The notes below the pieces were generated by a model, which was not told the DNA's origin, ran no database searches, and was given only the letters and a program-made list of their open reading frames with translations. 28,490 nt of DNA from Spizellomyces punctatus DAOM BR117. Lineage: Eukaryota. Numbering within the stretch: position 1 is the stretch's first letter; every line of letters begins with the position of its first letter. Shown here piece by piece: positions 1,004 to 24,881 of the stretch. A program made the translations under genes and the position numbers. The stretch lies in NCBI GenBank assembly GCA_000182565.2, contig KQ257474.1, one strand, 5' to 3'.

Positions 1004-2023
1004 TCAAAACCATTCATTTCCACCCAAGTGCCATACGCTAATCTTGGATGCACCAGCCATGTGAGCCGCTTGTACTTTTTCTCTCAAGCTTACATTATCC
1101 GAAATCACCCATTTGTCGCCTTGGGCATCATCAACCATGATCTCTGCAGATGTTGCCTCGCGCCGATTCGGATCATAAACGCCTAATGCTTTAGCGACCT
1201 CCAGCGTTGTCAGCGTTACGGTTCCATTATGTTTGTTAACTCGATAGCTATAGGATGGAAGCCCAATCACAAGGCGGCCCGTAGATATACCCAGCGAAAG
1301 AAGATATTGTGTCCAGACATGTATCCATTTGAGGGGCGCAATGGGTGCCCCGACTTCGTCAAGCCATTGGTAGTCATAGCACATGGGCGTAATGTAGTCA
1401 ACGGGGAGGTTTATGAAGTCTTCATAACGCCAACGGTAGTTTTGATTGGAGGGGTCATAATCCGTAGGCCCACAAACGCTCAATTTTCGATTGTGCGATT
1501 GCAAAAGCATACCCAGATCACTGACGAGGGATTTGTAATTCGCATAGTCTGCATCTGACCATTTACTGAATGCCTCCAAATCGAGATCAATTCCGGTCAA
1601 TCCATACTCATTGCAAAAGTCCACCAAAGTCAAAATAAAAGCATTTCGCTTTTCAATGTCCGTGTACACTGCACGAAATGCGTCCAGCTGGCATGATACA
1701 GTCACCAATTGCTCATCAGAGTGCGCTTTGATGTCGGCAACGTTGGTCAGACTGAATCCGTTCTTTGTGTCAAAAAGGTCATCGGGATCCTCTTTATCCA
1801 GCTTAAGAATTCCGTTTGGTTGTAGTGTAAAGTATTGCGGGCGCAGGACATGGATGCGAACGGAGCGATAAGTGTCCGGGGCATTGAGAGCTGGGCTACC
1901 TGGGTAAATCCAGGCGTGGAGTTGCATGTTGAGCGGAACCTGAGTTGCTCCTAACGTGGGTAATAGCACGAAAGCAAGCTTGGCAAATGTGGCAAACTTT
2001 TTCAGGCAAAGTCGTAGTCCCAT
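1004..2023 (-). CDS. Secreted glycoside hydrolase family 18 (chitinase-like) protein, intronless, ~339 aa
   Basis: Catalytic DxDxE motif (GIDLDLE), MCYDY motif, LVIGLPSY strand and C-terminal ISVWHLG typical of GH18 barrels. ATG at 2023 gives a signal-peptide-like start (MGLRLCLKKFATFAKLAFVLLPTLGA). Confidence 0.88.
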   Translation of the reverse strand: MGLRLCLKKFATFAKLAFVLLPTLGATQVPLNMQLHAWIYPGSPALNAPDTYRSVRIHVLRPQYFTLQPNGILKLDKEDPDDLFDTKNGFSLTNVADIKAHSDEQLVTVSCQLDAFRAVYTDIEKRNAFILTLVDFCNEYGLTGIDLDLEAFSKWSDADYANYKSLVSDLGMLLQSHNRKLSVCGPTDYDPSNQNYRWRYEDFINLPVDYITPMCYDYQWLDEVGAPIAPLKWIHVWTQYLLSLGISTGRLVIGLPSYSYRVNKHNGTVTLTTLEVAKALGVYDPNRREATSAEIMVDDAQGDKWVISDNVSLREKVQAAHMAGASKISVWHLGGNEWF

Positions 2024-2534
2024 TCCAGGATCTGACTTGTGCTGGGCATTGAAAAAATTAACGAAAATCCACAGCACATCATCAATTCTGTTATCACCCG
2101 GGCCTGGAACATTATGTGGCTTGGAACGCATAACGTTGGCAAGGTTCAAAAGGGCTGGCAAAGTGATCGGGGAGAAACAAAATGCACTCGTACCAATTTT
2201 CGGCTGGTTGAGATGATTCGGATGACTCGTAATGCTAAAGCGTTGCAAAGATGCACCTTGTTTTTTCAGAGAATTGCCGGACTGCAAAAGACGTAGTCTT
2301 GCTCATGCAGTATGTGCAATCGATATTCCACACATGGAGGATGACATACTCGTGCGACCCTGCTCTTGCAGACCCCAAAGTGACGAGAATTCTAGCATCA
2401 TTTGGTATGTTGTTCTCGCCGCACCTTTAGTATGTCCAATGTCCTCGAACTGTTTGTGACCTTACTTTAACATTCAAGCACACCTGCCATTGCTGAGGTC
2501 GATGTAGACTTCGCCTGTTCCCAATGTTTCTGTC

Positions 2535-4180
2535 TTGAAAATGTATCTCGATATTCGACTGTCGTCCACAGACATTGAAAAGTTCCTTGTCAGGAAAGGA
2601 TTTGGGGCGCCTATTATCCGGACCTTCCATGGTTCATCAGAGGGAAGAGGTGCCGCTGACTGCTCAATCTCGTCATTAAGCCTGGCAATCGCAACTTCTT
2701 GCGTAGATCATAGGGCTGTTATTAAAATTCCTTCTGATTGGTCATTCAGTAAGATGTAGCGGAGACAAGTTTTTTTTTTTTTTGATAGTTAAGAAACAGG
2801 AGCTTGCTGCTGTGTTCAGCTTGTCAATGCCTGCAGGCAATCTAACCCATGTCCACCGTTTATGGCCCTGGTAGTTGAGGCTTGAAACCATTGGTTACCT
2901 TATTGTTTACACAAATGCTAACGTTAGGTCCAGAGAATAACATTCTTGAAGTCTAGCTCTGCCCTCTCACGCGCCCGGATGATATATCTGTGGGTACAGA
3001 ACAGCGAACATCGGAATGCACACATTGATAAATCAACCATCCGTCTCATCGGGCTGGTAGGGCTGAACCTTTTCACACGGCAACGTAGCAGTATGCATAA
3101 AGCAGCTTTCCTTGCTCCTTGCAATTTGTGCAAAATGCAACGCTCGCTGGTGGCAGCATCGTTCGGACGACTCTCTTTCGCGGCAAGATGTGACAACATT
3201 AAAGAGTTTTAAAGGACTCAAGCCTACCCGTGACAATCAACGCCAGTTCACGACCTGAGGTTGGACTTCTTGTTCCATGGCCGCGAAAAGGTGGATGGCA
3301 ATTGTCGTTTGGCTAAGGTACAAGATGGATCTATTCAAGATTTCCATGAGGAGGTACTACCCGGCGAGCGTAAGCATATCGGAAGATGGAGAGATATGTT
3401 GCCTAAGTCGTCAACCCCAAATCTCTTTCATTTTGAGGAAGGCGTCCTCAGGTCGACTCTGACCATTTTGGATGTACAAAGTATGCACTGTCGGTAACAA
3501 GTTCCTTTCAATTTACTGATCATACATGAGATGCGTGGTCGATACCGCCCGCTCGAGGATGCTCACTACTATCAATCACGTCCCAGATATCGGGGAGATT
3601 CGTTAGAAATTGGCTGCTGTAATAATGGACAATTATAGACTTTTACAGTATCCCCCTATTAACGTACCAGGAACGAGGACGAAAGCATATCTTGGAAACT
3701 TGTCGCTGCAGCCGGTTCCTCGTTCAATCCGGACGGTCTCTCTGTTACTTAGCTGTGCTTGCCACAATTGGAATATGGCTTCGCTTCGCAGAAACGTCCA
3801 ATGCGTCGTGGCATGTGACGGATTCGTCATGGATGCAAGTACTAGTGGTAGTTAAACATGAGCAGACTGGGAATGAAAGGAAACCTTTTGTTTTAACATG
3901 ATGGGAATCCGTTATGGTCAATGCCATCATTCTAACGGTTTCCACAAGTGCGTGCGATCAGGTTGATCTCTAGAATTCGTAAATGCCAGGACCTCTGCAT
4001 TCCCCATTGTTGTGGCTTTGGATGATGCCAGTACCTCAACACAATGCTCCCGCATAGACCTCTTTGATACCGCGTAGTGAGCCAACAAATCACGAACGTA
4101 ATCTGACTTTCAAGACTATGCTCGCATAGTCCTGCGGTTTCCACTTTGTACACATGCATGGATTCACGATGGAACACCAA
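2535..4180 (+). pseudogene. Possible decayed gene remnant with WD40-like fragments
   Basis: Only short ORFs in shifting frames. Fragments resemble beta-propeller blades (ITFLKSSSALSRARMIYLW, LAKVQDGSIQDF, ASVSISEDGEICC, SFNPDGLSV). Branch/acceptor GCTAACGTTAG at 2917-2927. No coherent spliced model could be built. Confidence 0.25.
2770..2783. repeat. T14 homopolymer
   Basis: Directly visible run of 14 T. Confidence 0.95.
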
Positions 4181-4399
4181 ATGAGCTCAGGGAGTTTATT
4201 CATATATTACAATGATAAAAGAACATCCTACAACATCGCATTTGCAAAATAAATATTTGCTTTACCGTGTCAACCTTTCCAAAGGAGAGCACCGATTTAA
4301 GATCGGAAGCAGCTGAGGCGGATCGAGGGTTCTTCTTAGCGGCTATTCGTGCAAAGGAAAGATAACTTTCTCTTAAGTTAAGCACAAAAGATCTGCCTT

Positions 4400-5085
4400 C
4401 ACAGCCGAGGAAGTCGTATTAGCTGATCGCGGTCGCCCTTGGACCAGGTAGCCGCCGAGAAGTCGAAACCAAGTAATAAAAGGGAAAAGAAAATCGATCA
4501 GTACCTGTCCAGGAGCATGAAGCGTACCGTCTCAAAAACAGATCAATACGAGGTGCCGCGACTGGGGCACCTGGCGGTCATGAATCGGCACGCGATACAA
4601 GACCCCTGGCTTTCATCATGAATTGGTCCCCCTGGCCCTCTCCAGACGTCACACTTGGTACCCGCAAGGATGTGTGGTTCCTCCACAAACAAGGGGAGCG
4701 TAACTAATAGCCGCTAAAAAGCGAAAGAAACAGAGTGTACCACACGGGCGCGCAAGACCATTAACCCCGCCTCACTAGTCGGATGCCATCAGCCTCAACC
4801 CAAAAGCACAAAGGGCGAACGTTGTTCCCTCCACAATGTCTCAACTCCACAAAGGGAGTTCCACTTCGACAGGTCGCCGGGTTCTGAAATGAGCTGACCA
4901 AATCACTCACGAGTACGCGACAGCGCTCGGTTTTCAAACCCGGAGTTTGGCGACAGTGGAGAGTTTATAGCACCTCACACAGCACATAGCCAGACCATGT
5001 ACTCAACTTAACATAAGAAGTCCACAGCGGAGGTGAGACATGAATGAACAGCTGATAGTCATCGCAGAGAAAGATGAAGTGAAGA
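4400..5085. ncRNA. Candidate structured non-coding RNA (long 5' leader or divergent transcript); strand unresolved
   Basis: No convincing ORF. Many stems, including a nested hairpin at 4860-4960, AGGTGCC/GGCACCT at 4551-4572, AACTCC/GGAGTT at 4843-4860, TGGACCAGGTA/TACCTGTCCA at 4440-4511 and ccGCAAgg at 4662-4669. Confidence 0.35.
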
Positions 5086-5275
5086 GAGGTTTGGAACGCG
5101 GCTGCCGAGCGGTTTTTATATTGCTCTGCACTGCGCCACTCCCCTGACTCTCAACTTCTGGTGTAGTGGCACAGTCATACTAAGCCGCTCTATAACCATA
5201 TATGTGTAAATCAAAAACAGAGTGCTTGTCCGAATAAAATCGGACAACACAACGAGCTCACTTCATCACTTCATC
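5073..5275. promoter_or_regulatory. Putative bidirectional core promoter
   Basis: Minus strand: TATAAAAA (5120-5113) then initiator-like TCACTTCATC (5082-5073). Plus strand: AATAAAA (5233-5239) then two overlapping TCACTTCATC (5258-5267, 5266-5275) ahead of ATG 5307. Confidence 0.45.
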
Positions 5276-5306
5276 GCACCACGCAACTTCAACCCACCTA
5301 TCCTCA

Positions 5307-7118
5307 ATGACACCAAACGTGCGGCCCGCGTCACCGGCGGCGCCGAGCTCCGATCCCGCCGGTGCTGCTGGGGAGTCGCGAGGCACTAAACGCAGCCAAA
5401 GTGATGTGGACGGTGAAACAAAGAAGCGAAAGGTCACCTTAAGAAATGGTTTTGTTAAGATATCTGACAAGACCAGGCAGGAGCTAAGCGTGCCTAACTA
5501 CTGGGCAAATACGAAATTGATCGACTGGTCAGTCTTAGGATTCGCAGGGAATTGTGTTGCCAGTCACGATTGCGTGGAATGGACACTTGATAACATTAAG
5601 GAAGAGATATTGCATGACATCACTGTGTTGAAAGGAGTACTCACGCTCGTTAAAGCCGTAAGGATTTTAAGAGCCATGGAGAAGAAAGTTCGTGGAGAAA
5701 CCGAGGATCTCGCAGTTAGGGTATTTTGTAACGCTGTGAATAAGGCCCGATACCAGGAAATTGCTGCCGCACAGTTTGCCTCGAAAGTCAGTGGAGTTAT
5801 TGGTGCTAAGTCCATTATGTACACGGAGGCGGCTGGTATCGTCTGTGCGGATCTCCAACCAGCCGGACGACCAGAGATTGATGAGGATTCCGTCAATGAG
5901 GATAACGACACCGCCAATGACCACGATCAAGGCACCCCACGTCCGAATCTCAACACCTTCGAGCCCCTCAATCAGCACAGATCCGCCGATATGGTGTGTG
6001 CGCCGACTGAGGGGCATAGAGCGGATGACCTATTGGCAGCCCTGGTACCTGAAGCCAATTTGAGTAGCCAACCATCACTCTTCCAGAGGTTGAAAGACGC
6101 TTTTGAGCAGTACAAGAGTCAAGTTGCCGATGATTTTACAGTAGAGAACATATGCGATGTCAGAAGGCGGTCACCGTTCTTGCTCGCGGGATATGTGGAT
6201 GAGGCAGATTATCAGGAGCTTCTGGATATGGAGATAAAACCGATGGAAGATTTGTTGAAGCCGTCGATTGAAGCCGTGGTTGACAAGTTTTTCAATCAGG
6301 ATTTTGATGCGAAAAACTGGCGTCGGAGGCGTGAGAAGCTGCTGGATGTCATGGACGATGACATTGACGCAAAAAAGATGCGACATGTCCTGTATGAAGT
6401 CACACCGGCATATTTTGAAGCAATTTTTTCCGACCGCAACATTCTTCTGGAAAAGTCGTATGAAGAGGCGCCATATGCTCTGAAATTTGTTCATCCGCTG
6501 CTCCGCCACATTATCCGAGATTTTTCCAGTTTGCAATATGAGGGCGGTGATGTCGCTCTGATAAGTGTGCGGGAAAGGAAACGTCGTGAAGATCAAGATG
6601 GAACGGGAGAGCGAGCTGACGGTGTAGTTTACTCTTCAACGGGACGTGAACTCGCATCAGTGGAGATTAGCAAACCCTACCCTCCTCAGCAAAAGTTTGT
6701 GGACGACCTCGGCCAATTGGGACGAACAAGCAAGGATATAATCAACAATATGATCGTGCAGAACGTTTTGAACGATGAACACATACCGTCAGATCTTAAA
6801 GCCTACGAATGCCAAGTATACAACCACCGCCTTTCCCTTTCGTACATGAAGCTGGTGCATTCAGTTTACTTCAAAGTTGAATACGACAGAGAAGCACTCC
6901 CACGGACCGCCAAAGATCTTCCCAACCTCAGCAAAATTGTGAAGATGATCTTCTGTTGGGTTCAATCTATGGCCCAGTACTCGGAACTCTGTGAAAATCA
7001 GAGGACAAAGAGTCGTCGTCTCAGCAGCCTTCGAAACATGCGTAGCGCATACGAGCTCGCCGAAAACAGACCCAGATCGACTCGAAAGAAGACTTACATG
7101 GTGCTGAACAAATTCTAG
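5307..7118 (+). CDS. Intronless 603-aa protein with C-terminal PD-(D/E)XK restriction-endonuclease-like domain (Crinkler REase-type) and NLS-like motifs
   Basis: Long clean ORF. Motif string E..Y...FVHPLL ... GERADGVVY ... ELASVEISK ... KFVDD..QLGR.SKD resembles fungal REase-fold proteins. Basic clusters KRSQSDVDGETKKRK (N-terminal) and RPRSTRKK (C-terminal). Confidence 0.7.
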   Translation: MTPNVRPASPAAPSSDPAGAAGESRGTKRSQSDVDGETKKRKVTLRNGFVKISDKTRQELSVPNYWANTKLIDWSVLGFAGNCVASHDCVEWTLDNIKEEILHDITVLKGVLTLVKAVRILRAMEKKVRGETEDLAVRVFCNAVNKARYQEIAAAQFASKVSGVIGAKSIMYTEAAGIVCADLQPAGRPEIDEDSVNEDNDTANDHDQGTPRPNLNTFEPLNQHRSADMVCAPTEGHRADDLLAALVPEANLSSQPSLFQRLKDAFEQYKSQVADDFTVENICDVRRRSPFLLAGYVDEADYQELLDMEIKPMEDLLKPSIEAVVDKFFNQDFDAKNWRRRREKLLDVMDDDIDAKKMRHVLYEVTPAYFEAIFSDRNILLEKSYEEAPYALKFVHPLLRHIIRDFSSLQYEGGDVALISVRERKRREDQDGTGERADGVVYSSTGRELASVEISKPYPPQQKFVDDLGQLGRTSKDIINNMIVQNVLNDEHIPSDLKAYECQVYNHRLSLSYMKLVHSVYFKVEYDREALPRTAKDLPNLSKIVKMIFCWVQSMAQYSELCENQRTKSRRLSSLRNMRSAYELAENRPRSTRKKTYMVLNKF

Positions 7119-7132
7119 GAGGGACGTCAGGC

Positions 7133-7191
7133 GGGTGCCGGCGGAAGCATCGACTCTTCGGACTGAGGAGGTCGACGCCTCTGCCGGCCCC
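7133..7191 (+). other. GC-rich imperfect hairpin in the 3'UTR of the nuclease gene
   Basis: GCCGGCGGAAGCATCGAC (7137-7154) pairs with GTCGACGCCTCTGCCGGC (7171-7188), with one G-U and two A-C positions. c(UUCG)g at 7156-7161. Confidence 0.7.
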
Positions 7192-7575
7192 AATTGATGA
7201 GAATTCTGGAGTAGCGGGATTGCCGGACGGTGAGATGGGGTATTTGATTCTGTGGGACTTGAATTTGGATAATGAAATGAAAAAGGATAAGTGTGGTGCG
7301 TGGCGTTTGCGATGTGATCCTATTGGGCAAGTGACCGAATTATTGGAGTTAACTTTGTATGTGAAACTATTGGGAATGCGGTGTGCGAAAATATACCCTG
7401 TATTATTCATTGTTCTTGTTTTTGTATAAGAAAAGATTTGTTTTTGCTTTTGTTGATTTCATTGTAAAAGCGAGGGGCATTTCCGACTCTTTGACATGCA
7501 TCATGGTCATGTCTGCGGTCATGTGGTTTGCAGGGCACGCTGAGTACTGACTGTACTGTATGTTACATACTTGCA

Positions 7576-7966
7576 TCCCCACTATAGCGGACTGGCGTGA
7601 TCCCACATGACCAAACGCATCGATAAACGATTTAACATTGAACACGACGCGCTATGTCCAAGTTCATCATCGACCCTGTTTTCCTCTACTTTTCAACATA
7701 TCATAAACTAAATTAACATGCTTTAAAAATGTAGAAAAACAGTGGTATGTGGTATTTTCTATGCATCGGATAATCATTTCTGTATATGTAGTCTGCTACA
7801 TACCCAGCAGTATTTGTGAAAATAGTCTAAAGGAAATCGGTCCAAGTGTCGGCCGTGTCCAATTGAGGGCATGTGGAGCTGTGGAGCGCCGTTTCGTTAA
7901 ACCCCTCAAAATACTGTGTGTCATAACTTGGTCAGTCCACTTCACGCCAGTCCACTATAGTGGGGA
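7576..7966. mobile_element. MITE-like non-autonomous DNA transposon (~390 bp)
   Basis: TIRs TCCCCACTATAGCGGACTGGCGTGA (7576-7600) and TCACGCCAGTCCACTATAGTGGGGA (7942-7966) match 24/25. A further TGACCAA/TTGGTCA match (7608-7614, 7928-7934) lies at identical spacing. AT-rich interior. Confidence 0.8.
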
Positions 7967-8079
7967 GTACCCTTGCAGTTATCTTTCACGTGCATTGGTG
8001 ATCGGCGCGCTGTCAGCCGTGCTGCGGTCCAGCTCGCGTTTGGTGTCGTTTTGGATGCCCATCCAACTCGCTAAGGAGC

Positions 8080-8769
8080 ATGTCATCTCAAAAGTCTCTT
8101 CGCGTTCTCTACATACACGGTCGGCAATCTTCCAAAAACACCCCAAAGCTGGTACATTTATCAAAGTACTTTACGACACATTGCGTTGAATACACCGTGG
8201 AGCAGGCAGCAGATTATGAAGGCGTCGTCAAACAACAAGCTCGCGCCATCAAGGACTTTCAACCAGACGTAATTGTTGGGAGCAGTTATGGAGGGAGCGT
8301 GACAACCACCCTCGTACAGCGAGGGTTCCAGGCTTTGGCAGCGGCAAGGGAGGATCCAGAGAAAGCGCGCCGTGTGCTTATTTCTGGTGAGGAAAGTGTC
8401 CTTGGCGGTGACGAGGATATTGTAGGCTGGGTTGGTCCTGTGGTTCTTCTTGCGCCGGCCCACCTGAAGCGGTTTGGAATGGAAGACAAGGGGTGGTGGC
8501 CTACTGAAGCACCGGCAAAGATTATTCATGGCACTCAGGATGATATTGTCCCCATCGAGGACAGCAGGATTCTTGCGAAAAGTCTAAAATCTTTCACTCA
8601 GAAGAGGATCAACCTCCTTCCGATGAGATTTGTAGAATTAGTTGAGGTTGAGGATGGTCATCGACTTGAAAGTTTGGCCTCTGGCGATCTCTTGATTAAC
8701 GCGGTGACCGATGCCGCTAACACCTGGGGGCGTGCAAAGACGTTTGTTCCTTTGCCGGTGAATATGTAA
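8080..8769 (+). CDS. Small alpha/beta hydrolase (YqiA/UPF0227-like esterase), intronless
   Basis: YIHG oxyanion region, nucleophile elbow GSSYGG, LLAPA, IIHGTQDDIVP (Asp) and DGH (His). Confidence 0.85.
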   Translation: MSSQKSLRVLYIHGRQSSKNTPKLVHLSKYFTTHCVEYTVEQAADYEGVVKQQARAIKDFQPDVIVGSSYGGSVTTTLVQRGFQALAAAREDPEKARRVLISGEESVLGGDEDIVGWVGPVVLLAPAHLKRFGMEDKGWWPTEAPAKIIHGTQDDIVPIEDSRILAKSLKSFTQKRINLLPMRFVELVEVEDGHRLESLASGDLLINAVTDAANTWGRAKTFVPLPVNM

Positions 8770-9045
8770 AGGACTACCTGAGCGACAGTGGCTATAAAGG
8801 TATAGTAGACGCGAGCTGGGTGAGGGCAATAGTGTTTTGCTAGGTATGTAGGAATAGCCCATAGCGAAAGACATATCTTGTTGCACCATTCCCTGTGTGC
8901 AAGCTTTTATGGTGAACATCAATTATTAAATGGTCAAGTTCGCTATGATACAGATCATTGGAATTTCAAAAACAAAAAAAACCAGAATAAAAATAAAAAT
9001 CACCCCCTAGGGAGAAGTCGTTACGATCCAAAACTTGTGGTTAAA

Positions 9046-11090
9046 TTAATATTCCTCTTCTTGCGCTTCCGAAATCGCTATATTTCGATGAGGGCGAGCG
9101 ACACGATCCGCCCACCGCTCTGCGCTGTGTGTCTGCTCCACATCATCCAAGTCACTTGAATGCCGCTCACCGAGCGCCTGATCATTTCCGGTCGGGTTGG
9201 TAGTTTGTGTTTCGTCCCCATTTCCTTCCTCCGATTCAGACTCCTCCGTAATCCACCCTCGTCCGGACCCAAGCGGGGCATGGCCAAAGGATACAGACGG
9301 TCCTAGCCCCCTTCTTGTCCCCTGTCGATAATTGTCTCCGCCTTTCCCTTCCCAACGCCTGCGCCCTCGCCCAAACTTCCCACCACCCCGGTCAGCCGAA
9401 TTTGTGGCTTTTAAGTCTGTTAGCAACGGACGACGGGAACTGGAATTCCGCTGTTCGCCAAAAGAGGTACCAGCCTCTCCTAACGTTTTTCGGCGAGCTT
9501 GGGCCAGATAGTCGCCTCCATTCATGTCGCCCACCACCACAGGTGAAAGCGGAGATTCAGCTCCTGGCGAGAGTGGTGATCGCGGATATCCAGCATTCAC
9601 AGAACGGTGTTTGTCCAGTAACAAATACCATAATGCGCTGGCTTGATCGCACGCATTAGATTTAACGGATGTCATTATGGCATCTACATCCAATCCCGCG
9701 AGCCTCAAATTCCTCATCAGTGAAGACTCATCCGCCATGTCGACTGCAAGTGCAGGTGATGGCGCCGGGTTGCGAACCTCCTCCTCCGCTGCAGTATCGG
9801 CTTCCTTGAACCACGGATGTGCCAGCATCTCCTTGATACTGATGCGATCGCTTCCCTCCAATTTAAGCATGCTCTGTATCAGGTCTTTCGTCAATTCACC
9901 CAAAAAGTCCGGTAAATCGTAATCGAGCTCCAAAATTTTTCTGCGTATGTGCGCTTCACTATCATCATCGAAAGGCAGATATCCGCATAACAAAGTGTAG
10001 AGAATCACGCCTAATTAAGAGCATTAGAGCGTGCTGTGTCCTAATTGTTTATGCCTGAAACGCCAGTACCTAGTGACCATATGTCCGCCTGGGGTCCAGA
10101 GTATTGCTTGCCTGATATCATTTCTGATAAGATCGGACACATTTCGTTAACGAATGGACCCGATAGACAACCATAGAGACGCGAGTACTCACCTGGTGCA
10201 GCATAAGCAACCGACCCACAATATGTGTCCAATAAATTACGAGTAGTCACTTCACGGGTAAAACCAAAGTCAATCAGTTTCACGTCCAAATTCTCAGTTA
10301 AAAGAATATTTTCCAGCTTCAGATCCCTGTCAAATTCAAACTGAAAAACTTAGTGTCAATATCAAGACTTCCCCACTGAATACCCTACCTATGTACAAAG
10401 TTCTTCTCATGGCAGTACCCTACAGCCTCTGCAATTTGCCGGAACACTCTTTTCGCATCTTGGCATCGATCGTCGAATCTTCCGTGCGCACAAACATAGT
10501 CGAAGGCTTCGCCACCCGTACAGTATTCCATGACCATAAATATGCGGGTCTCACTACACAGAACTTCGTATAGGCGGGCAATGTTTGAATGATGCATATG
10601 ACGCCATGTTTCGATCTAAAGGATATAGGGCTGCTGAGCTGGATGCTCACCGCCTCTGGCAGGTCATATTTTTCAGCATTACCTCCCGAACCACGGTTGG
10701 TGCATGTATCTTGTCCACTATTTTGATGGCCACCTGCACTCCTGGCAGATAAGCAACATGTGCAAATTACAATATTGAGCCGATCTGCATACCTGCTGTC
10801 CAGTGAGGTTGTGTTTGGCAAGTTTCACCTTGCCAAACGTACCTACAATATTCTAGATATCAGCTTCTCCAATTCTATTTTCGCGCTACTATGCCATATC
10901 TCACCTTCTCCTAGTGTCCTTCCAAAGGTGTAATTTCCGATGGAGCCAATACTGGTCGAAGATAAAACCTTGAGGAGTTCGTTTTCCGCCGACTATGGTT
11001 CAATTAGCACGCTGACCAAACATCTCTTCTACGTGAACTAGAAAATCCACCTTCAAGCTCACTCACTTTTGGCCTGTGGACTCGCGACAT
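9046..11090 (-). CDS. Ser/Thr protein kinase, CAMK group (SNF1/MARK-related, Ppk16-like), multi-exon
   Basis: Spliced exons give MSRVHRPK|SAENELLKVLSSTSIGSIGNYTFGRTLGEG|TFGKVKLA, VAIK, HR|DLKLEN, DFG, TYCGSVAYAAP|E, DIWSLG and LLCGYLPFDD, then a UBA-like segment. Confidence 0.92.
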
Positions 11091-12767: not shown

Positions 12768-15220
12768 TTATACAACTTCTCCGGCGTAGGCGTATAAATA
12801 CGGGTTTCGTTTAGCAAACGGGTGAGGATGGCGTGCCGCGGCATTTGACGTCCTTGGTGTCGGGATTGCCCCATCGTTTTTCATTCGTCGTTTGCGCACC
12901 AATGCGGTCAATGCCAGAGCACAGGCTAACCCAAGCACAGCGGCACCAACCCCGATTCCCACATATTTACCTAGCGTCCTCTGTTCAGTCTTCAACGGCG
13001 CGTCAGGGTCTGCGGACGGGGTTGGGTTTGGAGTACCCCACACTGGAGTGAATCCTGGATTGACAGGCTCGACCGGAGGCGGAGTATAAGACCTTGCCGG
13101 AAGACCAGGTGTACATCCAATACGCAATGCCACTATCGAGTACTGCTGCACAGTAAAGGTAAACATTTGACCCTGCGCTTCAACAATCTCCTCTGTATAT
13201 GCCCCTATGGGATGCCCATCCAGTGAATTATCCCATGTCTGCTTATTGATCGTGACGCCTGTTTTTGCGTTGAGAGCAGGTGCTTCTAGACGTGTGATAT
13301 ATCCTTTCGGTTGCTGTGATGACGTGCAATTCGATAACGCAGAGAAGGCGTAGGGATACTGGACTGTGAAAGATGTGGCATTGGCGGCGGGGCTTTTGTG
13401 TATGACCACCAACGTCATCTCTCCAGTTGCGGTGTTGTTCACGCCCCAAGTTTTGATGGAATTGCCGGTGAGCGCCCATCCACCGTCAAGGGACGCTCGG
13501 AAAAGAGTACTGCCTGCTCCGCGAAGGATTCTGTTGACCTAGATGCGGGAATTTAAGCCTCGGACGTAAAAGCGACAGTAGTTCAATGTGCCTTGACGTT
13601 ACCATTAGCATTCCGTAGTACGTTGGCCTTGGGCTCATGCGCCCAGTTACAGGATCGAGCGAGTAAGGAGCATAGTATGTCTGAGCGGCACCGGACAAAG
13701 AGGTGTACTTGACGTTCCGATATGCCATCTGGTGCAAGTAACGTCCGCTGAGTACTAGCAATATGGATACGAATAATCTACTATGTTCAAATGCTAACCT
13801 CCAACAACGTGTCCACTGTCCATATCGCCGATGCAAACGTGTCCGATACTCCAGCGGTACCATTACACGATGAGGAACCGCCTTCTCCCCAGACAACATC
13901 TTGATTTCCGGCTAATAGCAACGCATTAGCATTATACAACTTGGATCTAATTACCTTTGTGACAAGTTCTCACCTTGGGCCACTTGGACGAGGCTGTCTA
14001 TCCACACATACTCTTCCGGGGCTGGGTCTGCTAGTAAAGTCAATGGAGTTACTGCGTCAGGGTTGGTGGCAGTCGAACAACCGCGTTGCCCATATTTGTG
14101 AAATCTGCTCATTCCGTTAGCTGATTGAGCAAAGGTTTTACTCGCAGGCGCCCACACTTCAATAACTCACGAAATGTATTTTGTTCCACGCTGTCCTTGA
14201 ATAAATGGTATCATATAATCGGAAGTCCACGGGTAAGCATAGGAAGGGCCTTGATAATCAAATCCAGGGCCAATGGCGGCAACAATCGCATTGTAGGCCA
14301 CGGTGAACTCTTTCGTGAAGTCATTAAAGGAGTAGCCGGGTGGACGTCGGCCGTTTTTTTCATAGTGGTCTACAAAAAGTGTTCAGTGGACTGCAGCTTG
14401 ATCCATGGTGACGGCAGATGTCTACCTGGCTCATTCCCAATCTCGATAGCAAGGATGTGGTCTTTGGATAAGTTTGGTATGACGCCTTTAACCAGAAACT
14501 CCACGGCATCTGCGTGTTCGATACTAAAATATCAGAGACCGGTTGTAAAAAGCCACATCTTCAGGTTAGAGGAAACTTACACGCCGGATCCGGACTCAAC
14601 ATCGGAACGGTTAAGACCATTCTGCTCCCTGTAGATGACTGTAAATGTGACATTCAGAACCAATTTGGTATATGTGGCTACTGATATTTGATAACAACTT
14701 CAGGACATACCGCAAATTCTTGAATGATCTTGAGCTCCATTGCGTTTACACTCCAGGTACTTTGGCTCAAACGCGGTAGAATAGAACCTTGCCACCATCT
14801 GAGCCCGCAGGTGCAGATTTAGCATGATCGGTCGAGATATAAATCGGTACACATCGAACATACTTACAATCGGGTTGCGCTATTTCCACCAATTCTAAGA
14901 GTCGGCGGATAGCCCGCAACTGCCTCAGCCAAGTGCCGAAAGAGATTGACTACGATGGGATTGGAACTGTAATCTACTCCAGTGTTCGCTCCGGGACCCG
15001 GTCCCAGTGCGTCGTCTACATGGGTCCATTCTACTGAAAATCCAACAAAACTAGGATCTATCAAGCCGGAGGGAGTTGTATTGGACGCTGGATGACTGAG
15101 CTCGACGATAGCTGCGTGAACAAGGCATCTGATTTCGACGAAAGCGAAAAGGCAAAGGAGCTTGATGTAAAGCGACTTTTGCCAAGCTGCATATTTGCCA
15201 AATGACAAAAATGCTGGCAT
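12768..15220 (-). CDS. Glycoside hydrolase family 79 (beta-glucuronidase/heparanase-like) with signal peptide, Pro-rich stalk and C-terminal TM helix, multi-exon
   Basis: FVGFSVEW, LRIGGNSA, IEIGNEP (acid/base), WGEGGSS (nucleophile), GVSDTFASAIW and PRPTYYGML. TM segment YVGIGVGAAVLGLACALALTALV followed by RKRR. Confidence 0.88.
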
Positions 15221-15787
15221 ATTCCTCTGCCTTTTGCACAATTAACGCAAGCTCAAGCAACTGTGTTGAAAGCTTTGAGTTACTCTTTAAACAAATGCAT
15301 ATCTTCTAGTGCGAACGCGCATTAGATCAGCAATCGCGTCGAACTTGGAAAGTGAATTCTTCGAATTCTCCAACCTTCCTGCTTACTTTGGAAGATGCAG
15401 CAACTTCCGCGGTACACGACACAGAAGACGCAGTGGATTCCACGGTATAGACGAACACCAGCAGTTAATAAAGCATGCAGCAAGGGCATTAGCAAGCGCC
15501 AACACAAGGTTTCTCCCCATGCCTAAAGTTTTCAGATCCAGATTATTTGACATATTTTGTTGATAGCGGGATCCAAACATCTGATGTTGGAAAAGAGATT
15601 AACAATGCTGGCGAATGTAGCCTGCGTATCTTGCTCGTTTCCACTAGGTTCACATACAAAGTTAACTGTGTAAGGCGGTGGAGGCAATGAGGTCACGTGC
15701 CTCTTACTGGTAAGATCATGGATTCCACAGCCTGGCTTACAGCAATCCTCCCAGAAGAATGAGCGTTCGGTTCGATGCGACATCGTA

Positions 15788-23164: not shown

Positions 23165-24881
23165 TCATTTTGGAATGCAGACTGTCTCGCCCAGCCTTGA
23201 CGTAAAGACGGTCCCTTCGGCAAGGTTTCTTCGTATTCGGCTTTCTTCTAAATACTTAGGAGGATCAAGATAATGCTCATCTGACATCATAAACGTTCCC
23301 CAGTGCACCCCAATCGAGTAAGAAGCGTTCAAATCGGTATGAATTTGGCACGCCTCGTCGGGGTCCACGTGTTGGTGTCGTAGGAACCATCGTGGTTCGT
23401 AGGCGCCGATAGCTATACTGGGAATGAGCCCAAGCAACGAGGTATCCTCAAGGACTGAGAAGAACTTACGCAGTGCAGCTAAAGTTATGGGGCCATACTT
23501 TTTTCCAATTTCCTTGAATGCCGTACAGTATCCCGTATCCCCGCAGTGGAAGAAGCTACTAGTTGGGCCTTTCACAACAAAGGAACACCACAAAGTTCTA
23601 TTGACATCAAAGAAGTGGCGTCCACTCCAATGCTGTATTGGAGTGCCGATGATGCGAAGTGTATTTTCGTGAAGGCGTTCTTCCCACCAATCAAGCTCCA
23701 CCACCTACGTATACAGTTGTTAAGACCACATAGCTGAGACACAGAGACAAGGTCAATTCTTACATTTGTAACGCCGTGGCTACCAAACCAGTCACGAAGA
23801 CCGAGAGGTACGTACCAAGTGACGGAATTACCAAGTTCCTTTACGACTGCCCGATCTGGTAAATACATCATCAGCCGGGCGAAGTCAATGCCTAGTTTGC
23901 AGGTGTGTGTACACGTACCAAGATGATCATAATGATCATGCGACACAAGTACGATATCAATCTTTGGCAAGTCAGAGAGATTACATGGTACCGGTCGAAG
24001 TCGGCGGGGTCCTAACCAGTTGCCCACAGTTCGAGAGCTGTATCCCACACAATATTAGCGTCATCTTAACCCGGGCGAGATGATAGTAGAATACCTGAAT
24101 ATCGGATCCGTAAGGATGTTATATCCATCCATCTGTACTAGGCAAGTCGATTGACCTAGACGAGAGCTCTTAGTATGTGGTACATCTCCCGATATCAATT
24201 CGACAGCAACTCCGCCCTGCCTTACCAAACCACGTCACTGTCATTGACGGGCGGGACCCATGTGATGGCAAGGTGATCCACGAAGCCTCAAGGTCGTCCA
24301 CTGAGCTGCGGTTATGGAAATTTTGCAACAGTTCCCAGTTCGGTTGTACTGTGGGAAGGCTCTCTGCCAAGACCTGACATAGGATGGACAATGTATGTTA
24401 AGTGCAGGACTGACCAAGTACGTTGACAAAACAAAGCAACCTTATTGTCCTTGGGGATGCCATTCCGATTATGTCTTGTAAGCTGCCAACGGACATATTC
24501 CCAGATGTTCGTCGCATTTTTATCTCGCCATTCCAAAAACGGATTGACAAAGCGTCCAGCGAACTTCAACGATGTATAAACTTTCTGTCTCCAGAATCCC
24601 ATCTGTGCCCTCGACAATGCCACAGCCTTGCGCGTTTCGTCTGGGTTAGCAGGTTCCAAGCCTTCCTCTTCCTCGGCTTCATTGGCATTCTCGACCTCTT
24701 CGACTTCCTTCATTTGACCGTCAATATACTCCCAATGGCGTTCAATTGCCCGTCTTCGGTGCCTTCGGTGCCATAACCAGCGGCTTTGCTCGAATAAAAG
24801 GATACTTCCCAGCAATGCCACTGGCACGGCTGCAAAAACATACGGCCGAACGCCCAAAGCGACAATACTTTGGTGACCCAT
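23165..24881 (-). CDS. N-acyl-phosphatidylethanolamine phospholipase D-like metallo-beta-lactamase (FMP30-like), multi-exon; start uncertain
   Basis: FVNPF, TWFG|QSTCLVQ..NILTDPIF, SHDHYDHL, QHWSGR, LWCSF, GDTGY, IGAYEPRWF and HWGTF. N-terminal hydrophobic segment. Confidence 0.92.

Follow-up and report, generated by a model that had tools for sequence, protein, structure and literature searches.

The window analysed here, a stretch of 28,490 nucleotides of Spizellomyces punctatus DAOM BR117 (contig KQ257474.1), carries an intron-free gene for a protein of 603 amino acids, P0001. In a structure model, this protein has the fold of the PD-(D/E)XK or restriction endonuclease (REase)-like nucleases, and its open reading frame (ORF) is bordered on both sides by strongly structured segments. 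The frame runs from ATG to TAG on the plus strand and is the sole long ORF within 4200-7200. Residues 104-603 align collinearly and unbroken to a hypothetical Spizellomyces sp. 'palustris' protein of 504 amino acids (44% identity, E 7e-142). Since this alignment is unbroken, no intron is needed in the ORF, and the single-exon frame for 603 amino acids that had been read from the sequence in an original prediction stands. P0001 appears to be composed of five parts, namely a cluster resembling a nuclear localization signal (NLS), a helical head, an acidic linker, a domain uniting a helical subdomain with the PD-(D/E)XK core, and a basic tail. Their positions and those of the residues of the candidate active site are as follows:

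5307..7118, plus strand: single-exon coding sequence of P0001, 603 amino acids (stop codon TAG at 7116-7118; sense RNA reads at the 3' end)
5388..5432, plus strand: bipartite-NLS-like cluster KR-x9-KKRK, residues 28-42 (K28-R29, then KKRK at 39-42), from the sequence
5454..5846, plus strand: N-terminal helical region, approximately residues 50-180 (alignment A1; helices predicted at low confidence)
5859..6056, plus strand: acidic, low-complexity, poorly conserved linker, approximately residues 185-250
6075..7001, plus strand: helical subdomain (residues 257-375) and predicted PD-(D/E)XK core (residues 385-565), from the structure model, structural matches and conservation counts
6465-6467, plus strand: E387
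6618-6620, plus strand: D438
6663-6665, plus strand: E453
6672-6674, plus strand: K456
7002..7115, plus strand: basic C-terminal tail, residues 566-603 (predicted helix, then disorder)

The basic clusters that had been noticed in the sequence are found at residues 39 (KKRK), 286, 339, 424 and 593. The first of them, as part of KR-x9-KKRK, resembles the general pattern of a bipartite NLS. The N-terminus combines this cluster with acidic residues and, inspected by eye, does not look like a mitochondrial presequence. The helical head contains a stretch of the form Y[FW]-x7-W[SC]-x4-L that is common to P0001 and its relatives from Glomeromycotina in alignment A1. No known fold was recognized for this N-terminal region (approximately residues 50-180) in the Atlas structure search, in which all rows had template modeling (TM) scores <0.4 and feature scores <0.8. 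Throughout the family, the C-terminal tail contains an R-x-S-R-x-S stretch (KSRRLSSLR in P0001), whose serine S573 is present in 16 of the 17 rows covering it and which we take to resemble a phosphorylation site of basophilic kinases.

Sequence searches with P0001 found neither a Pfam family (E up to 10) nor a PDB chain (phmmer). CNOT10 and NuiA, which appeared in a profile search of the PDB (best E 0.05), were dismissed as chance matches. A single-sequence AlphaFold2 (AF2) model of the protein was useless, with a predicted local distance difference test score (pLDDT) of 35.9. The alignment-based model of residues 250-603 (25 rows) reached a pLDDT of 90.7 and a predicted TM score (pTM) of 0.90. 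In it, a helical subdomain precedes an alpha-beta-beta-beta-alpha-beta core, after which comes a long helix. The core elements are arranged in the order H138-157, E161-168, E187-193, E199-205, H212-239 and E249-256 (numbering of the model; H, helix; E, strand). The model was compared with 48,161 representative PDB chains using VIA-align. The highest-ranking matches were two mitoribosomal chains, 3j7y_5 (Z 11.3) and 7a5f_s3 (Z 10.8), aligned over 207-210 residues. BpuSI and DrdV came next, matched through their N-terminal nuclease domains (Z 9.8 each, root mean square deviation (rmsd) 3.3 Å); HsdR (Z 8.0), TT1808 (Z 7.8) and NgoMIV (Z 6.7) also scored well. NgoMIV, SgrAI, EcoRI, Can2 and NucC lay at Z 5.8-6.7, and the range of Z 5-7 held many type II restriction enzymes together with Can2, NucC and McrC-type chains. 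Lower scores were obtained for a Toxoplasma mitoribosome chain (Z 5.5) and the RAP module of FASTKD4 (Z 4.8). When Foldseek was run against the PDB, DrdV, BpuSI and other REase-like proteins ranked at the top, every row having an E-value >0.001. The Atlas structure search returned fungal clusters of PF20516 (PDDEXK_12) and PF25545 (DUF7924) with TM scores of 0.51-0.58 over residues 273-575, which is below the naming bar of the tool. A library of viral structures gave no match at E ≤0.001, with weak rows for PD-(D/E)XK proteins and bunyaviral polymerases. According to the model, P0001 has a PD-(D/E)XK/REase-like fold built on an alpha-beta-beta-beta-alpha-beta core. The REase-like core suspected from the letters of the sequence was thus confirmed by structure prediction and structure comparison, the check that had been proposed for it, and not by sequence similarity. 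The statement that the protein is not Fanzor likewise holds, the fold being PD-(D/E)XK and not RuvC.

Three acidic residues are invariant across alignment A1, namely E387 (27 of 27 rows), D438 (26 of 26) and E453 (24 of 24). Further conserved positions are K/R456 (20 of 25), P457 (23 of 25) and Q503 (17 of 21). In an active enzyme, the metal ligands would be E387 from the first helix of the core, D438 from the second strand and E453 from the third, with K/R456 or a different basic residue completing the active site. Instead of the canonical (D/E)-x-K, the family has E-[GI]-[SA]-[RK]-P. The second residue after E453 is serine, alanine or threonine in 24 of 25 rows, the third is basic (arginine in 15 and lysine in 5 of 25), and the fourth is proline. 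Because the basic residue is displaced to position +3 and is more often arginine than lysine, nuclease activity is not assured. We read this non-canonical site as probably active.

The core fold is shared with BpuSI (3s1s), DrdV (7lo5) and HsdR (3h1t), which belong to the type IIG/IIL and type I restriction enzymes (Z 9.8, 9.8 and 8.0, rmsd 3.3-4.5 Å over 137-155 residues), as are an acidic residue on the first helix, an aspartate on strand 2 and a glutamate on strand 3. In contrast to these proteins, to which it is 9-13% identical, P0001 is eukaryotic and stand-alone, has no methyltransferase, helicase or specificity partner, possesses an extra helical subdomain and shows the motif E-x-x-K/R in place of E-x-K. 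The matches to 3j7y_5 and 7a5f_s3, which we take to be mL37 and mL65/MRPS30, also cover the helical subdomain in front of the core (rmsd 4.7 Å). These chains are structural proteins of animal mitochondrial ribosomes with 6% identity to P0001, whereas P0001 has the invariant acidic triad and a nuclear-looking N-terminus. No link between mL37/mS30 and the restriction endonuclease fold was found in the literature. PF20516 and PF25545 resemble the P0001 family in being fungal and uncharacterized. They differ from it in distribution, their clusters being commonest in Ascomycota and the P0001 family occurring in chytrids and Mucoromycota. The hidden Markov models of both families matched neither P0001 (E up to 10) nor any of 27 relatives (E up to 0.1). 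The literature search found nothing on PDDEXK_12, only incidental mention of DUF7924 and nothing relevant on PDDEXK proteins in Glomeromycotina.

An exhaustive phmmer search of 1.84 billion representative proteins (E ≤0.001) yielded 29 proteins including P0001 itself, and all 28 others are fungal by name. Seven relatives belong to Chytridiomycota (Spizellomyces, Gaertneriomyces, Geranomyces, Fimicolochytrium, Chytriomyces and two from Nowakowskiella), 19 to Glomeromycotina and two to other Mucoromycota (Jimgerdemannia and Hesseltinella). The nearest named relatives come from Spizellomyces. An additional profile search added only relatives from Chytriomyces, none of them with a Pfam domain. Pfam searches with 27 relatives (E up to 0.1) returned 26 different families with one member each, a chance-like result. 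As far as seen in these sequence searches, this is an unnamed family confined to Chytridiomycota and Mucoromycota. In the Atlas, the domain sits beside unnamed clusters of 125, 96 and 127 members that are commonest in Mucoromycota. The sequence of head, linker, REase-like domain and basic tail is common to the members from chytrids and Glomeromycotina. Fused forms longer than 1056 amino acids were not found, which is weak evidence in favour of the stand-alone nuclease that had been proposed. Clustering of the family at 90% identity resulted in 30 clusters, the largest with seven members; since 23 of the 30 are single-member clusters, the family does not result from a recent burst. In metagenome contigs, 310 stretches matched the search pattern and none was confirmed by tblastn. 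A 217-amino-acid relative of P0001 in S. punctatus itself (P0003, SPPG_08363; 48% identity) spans only residues 293-496 and represents a truncated paralogue or else an incompletely modelled gene.

The segments on both sides of the ORF and the transcripts detected around it are:

4182-4459, minus strand: abundant polyadenylated RNA at approximately 80x, overlapping the first 60 nt of the segment 4400-7191 (one loose end, poly-T, before 4182; others at 4448-4459)
5073..5275, no strand assigned: nested inverted-repeat domain of approximately 200 nt; its end lies 32 nt upstream of the ATG
5073-5086 / 5262-5275: outer stem of this domain, 13 bp
5088-5103/5183-5197, 5104-5113/5120-5129, 5130-5147/5157-5175 and 5222-5233/5240-5250: inner stems of this domain
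7119..7615, plus strand: probable 3' untranslated region (UTR); sense reads peak at 7148-7381 and fade within 7382-7615
7125..7199, no strand assigned: imperfect hairpin of 75 nt and 30 bp, starting 7 nt after the stop codon and lying within the stretch of sense reads
8002-8766, plus strand: alpha/beta hydrolase gene

RNA evidence was taken from one raw RNA-seq run with the same species label (X18; 60-nt records), of which approximately 6% was used and 1387 reads were placed on positions 2000-9000. From the accumulation of reads at the 3' end of the hydrolase gene, it is evident that the library is 3'-biased and that first mates lie on the sense strand. Runs X1, X3 and X4 were dropped as expression data; their even, low-depth contigs resemble DNA. 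In successive bins of 234 nt, the sense depth was 3.5x (6914-7147), 28x (7148-7381) and 5.7x (7382-7615). Since sense reads cover 6914-7615 in the same manner as the 3' end of the hydrolase gene, the nuclease gene is expressed, and its reads are consistent with the hairpin at 7125-7199 belonging to the nuclease 3' UTR. The minus-strand RNA lies approximately 850 nt upstream of the nuclease ORF. It carries poly(A) at 4182 with an AATAAA upstream of this end, and a large number of its reads break off at 4448-4459, where they pass into mixed letters without a match. It contains no ORF of at least 20 amino acids and shows no excess of structure (z +0.12; 109 of 200 shuffled sequences fold as well). 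The possibility that it forms the terminal exon of a protein-coding gene was ruled out, there being no minus-strand ORF of at least 20 amino acids in 4204-5115 and no AG preceding the read ends at 4448-4459.

The upstream DNA had been described as poor in ORFs and rich in hairpins, and both descriptions are accurate. No ORF starting with ATG and longer than 37 amino acids lies wholly inside 4160-5306 on either strand. The segment 4400-5306 folds on the plus strand with a z-score of -3.45 (20 shuffles only), the signal being concentrated in 5073-5275. For 5060-5306, the plus-strand energy is -75.9 kcal/mol with 67 pairs, four of them G-U (z -4.85; none of 200 shuffles as good). The minus strand of this 5' domain reaches -79.2 kcal/mol (z -1.87). 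The long hairpin reported just after the stop codon was recovered at 7125-7199 (plus strand 30 bp, -46.9 kcal/mol, z -4.78, again none of 200 shuffles as good; minus strand -42.9 kcal/mol, z -5.41). Both flanks therefore exceed shuffled controls, a comparison that had been proposed at the outset. In a control scan, every 90-nt window of the 28.5 kb was folded against 30 dinucleotide shuffles each. Only two of the 947 plus-strand windows had z < -4, namely 5101-5190, located before the ATG and the most extreme of all, and 7111-7200, located after the stop codon; five of the eight plus-strand windows with z < -3 border the nuclease ORF. Of the 845 minus-strand windows folded (947 in total), four had z < -4, and three of these are away from this ORF (13351-13440, 24751-24840 and 23311-23400, with z-scores of -6.1, -5.4 and -4.1 at 30 shuffles each). 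Such hairpins are accordingly rare, and not unique to the nuclease gene.

The 5' domain is closed by a 13-nt inverted pair (5073-5085 / 5263-5275), which is the sole candidate for the mirror-image promoter-like motifs of the original prediction. As there are eight inverted pairs of 12-20 nt in 3.8 kb, this pair alone is not significant. The domain as a whole is either promoter DNA or a 5' leader. Searches of Rfam found no match at gathering score in the whole window and only sub-threshold rows for the flanks (E up to 1-5); for the 3' hairpin, these were generic rows of pre-miRNA shape with 17-20 bits against gathering scores of 60-97. No tRNA was found. Read-through of the stop codon promoted by the hairpin was ruled out, given that the frame closes again after 15 codons. 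On present evidence, the hairpins represent an unusual UTR or promoter structure and no more. The literature search on hairpins and UTRs of S. punctatus found nothing on this gene.

We consider it moderately probable that the locus holds a chytrid nuclear gene of an ordinary kind, expressed and free of introns, which encodes an uncharacterized and probably active nuclear nuclease and whose hairpins act in cis. P0001 would then cleave nucleic acid inside the nucleus in a metal-dependent manner. The structured segments would be parts of the gene itself, that is, of its promoter or 5' leader and of the start of its 3' UTR, and might hold down the translation, or set the mRNA stability, of a potentially harmful enzyme. 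Several observations weigh against this account. The two best structural matches are non-enzymes, the canonical (D/E)-x-K is absent, and the Pfam and PDB searches gave no tie at the sequence level between P0001 or its family and any named family. The gene has no introns, and several neighbouring genes have them. The Atlas indicates an expansion of the family in Glomeromycotina. Both the lack of introns and this expansion would also fit a selfish or conflict-related origin. Both flanking elements have similar fold energies on either strand, as would be expected of DNA palindromes no less than of RNA, so that nothing in this symmetry shows an action as RNA rather than DNA. Not a single sense read was placed between 4574 and 6211; this is expected of the 3'-biased library of this sole run, and the 5' domain may never be transcribed. 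Finally, antisense reads at a depth of 0.4-1.7x extend over 4574-5977, from the intergenic region into the first third of the nuclease ORF. They are unexplained and may represent read-through of a longer minus-strand transcript that ends at 4182.

The Glomeromycotina expansion together with the presence in chytrids would be explained if P0001 were an intracellular toxin of a conflict system of the Crinkler (CR) type, with an alpha-helical header, an REase toxin module and an NLS, directed against other cells or invading DNA. P0001 and its family resemble CR effectors with REase modules in the layout of head and REase domain and in nuclear targeting; both kinds also occur in chytrids and Glomeromycotina and have expanded in particular lineages. 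The layout is kept from chytrids to Glomeromycotina, and the Atlas clusters of relatives are commonest in Mucoromycota. According to a review of the work of Zhang et al. 2016 (PMC5289972), CR proteins are not always secreted, alpha-helical headers can replace the ubiquitin-like one, and REase is the commonest toxin module; CRNs of Rhizophagus are reported to carry CR-REase 5, 6 and 8 domains (PMC6131194). Based on architecture and taxonomy, a kinship of P0001 to the CR-REase families of Zhang et al. 2016 is plausible. Set against this, P0001 shows no ubiquitin-like header, NTPase or kinase by Pfam and no LFLAK/HVLV-like motif by eye, and Pfam is likewise blank for these features in the 27 relatives. 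The absence of a recognizable Crinkler header, as stated in the original prediction, thus holds at the level of Pfam, and we regard a CR toxin as unlikely.

The same expansion could be invoked for a selfish or domesticated nuclease of a mobile element with 5073-5275 and 7125-7199 as its structured ends, and so could the truncated 217-amino-acid relative in S. punctatus, the lack of introns among intron-bearing neighbours, the approximately 3 kb of ORF-poor DNA adjoining the gene, an element resembling a miniature inverted-repeat transposable element (MITE) just downstream (7576-7966) and the position of structured DNA exactly at the ORF borders. Structured ends of a mobile element had been among the interpretations offered for the locus, yet the repeats they would bring along are missing. 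The 5' and 3' elements have no sequence in common, and neither inverted nor direct repeats link the two flanks; for inverted pairs, this was the case both within 4000-7800 and in the whole window. Terminal inverted repeats with a target-site duplication bracketing the nuclease gene were not found, and the sole bracketing inverted pair (3921-3960 / 9644-9683, 70% complementary) spans two other genes. No ORF for a transposase, reverse transcriptase or recombinase is located near the gene. Its GC content at third codon positions (0.52) lies within the range of ten neighbouring ORFs (0.48-0.58), as does its correlation of relative synonymous codon usage (0.32, compared to -0.11 to 0.53). Near-identical copies are rare, as the predominance of single-member clusters indicates, and no relative was confirmed in metagenome contigs. 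A mobile origin is, in our estimate, improbable.

That the protein is a catalytically inert RNA binder or scaffold of REase fold, comparable to mitoribosomal chains and RAP-domain proteins, would agree with the ranking of 3j7y_5 and 7a5f_s3 at the top, their matches including the helical subdomain, with the similarity to the Toxoplasma mitoribosome chain and the FASTKD4 RAP module, and with the displaced lysine of the (D/E)xK motif. The invariance of the three canonical acidic positions is unexpected for a purely structural protein, however, and the acidic, NLS-like N-terminus gives no hint of a mitochondrial presequence; we judge an inert protein to be very improbable. Least credit is given to an RNA-partnered nuclease, in which a partner, either a structured RNA derived from the flanks or the minus-strand transcript nearby, would serve to guide, scaffold or neutralize the protein. 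The ORF is indeed bordered by the two plus-strand windows that fold most strongly in the 28.5 kb, and an abundant ORF-less RNA lies upstream with low antisense coverage of the 5' third of the ORF. However, this RNA is unstructured, the hairpins fold similarly on either strand, reads in mRNA sense cover the region of the 3' hairpin, and no Rfam family was matched. The earlier idea that protein and flanking RNA form one unit is therefore left unsupported, and we consider it most unlikely. Eukaryotic nucleases with selfish behaviour are known in Spok and in Fanzor/TnpB. Spok carries an REase-like domain along with a protein kinase, which P0001 lacks by Pfam. Fanzor/TnpB combines RuvC with an adjacent structured guide RNA, whereas P0001 is predicted to have the PD-(D/E)XK fold and its flanks are without an Rfam match; we know of no PD-(D/E)XK enzyme that is RNA-guided. 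A more far-reaching proposal, to which we would assign a low probability, is that of a new, toxin-like class of fungal conflict nuclease, expanded in arbuscular mycorrhizal fungi, whose expression is gated by RNA. In such a system, the folded leader of 200 nt and the 30-bp post-stop hairpin would silence the mRNA or pass it on to Dicer or an RNase III, and the minus-strand RNA together with its read-through antisense transcripts would serve as an antitoxin-like repressor acting on the 5' half of the gene.

A confident fold and a candidate active site can now be given to a family that has neither a Pfam name nor a solved relative and that is much expanded in arbuscular mycorrhizal fungi. If the nuclease is active, it would come into consideration for a part in genome defence, incompatibility or selfish behaviour, within lineages barely explored for such systems. 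Spizellomyces includes a genetically tractable chytrid. The hairpins at both borders of the ORF would provide a compact case for control, at the mRNA level, of a potentially toxic enzyme.

The window has the appearance of nuclear DNA of a chytrid. The neighbours of the nuclease ORF are ordinary eukaryotic genes, several of which are split by introns. Besides the hydrolase gene, they include genes for a protein kinase and a septin, a TDP1-like ORF, an M17 peptidase in three pieces, a gene of metallo-beta-lactamase fold in two pieces, and the following:

1007-2302, minus strand: GH18 glycosidase gene

Between the GH18 gene and the minus-strand RNA, approximately 1.9 kb (2300-4180) contain no ORF with a Pfam match and are covered by RNA reads at 0-0.9x. 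The MITE-like element downstream of the nuclease gene possesses terminal inverted repeats of 25 nt (96% complementary, 341 nt apart), for which no clear target-site duplication was seen. Its interior (7605-7867) recurs in the genome, as DNA contigs of runs X1 and X4 diverge from the window at 7605 and 7867, and RNA reads over this interior display fixed differences at 7833 and 7843. A 30-nt motif of the nuclease 3' UTR (7347-7376) recurs in inverted orientation 8 kb away (15638-15667, 90% match), and both copies are preceded by a further common GGCA-GTGACC stretch. This pair could be a shared 3'-end signal or the remnant of a repeat.

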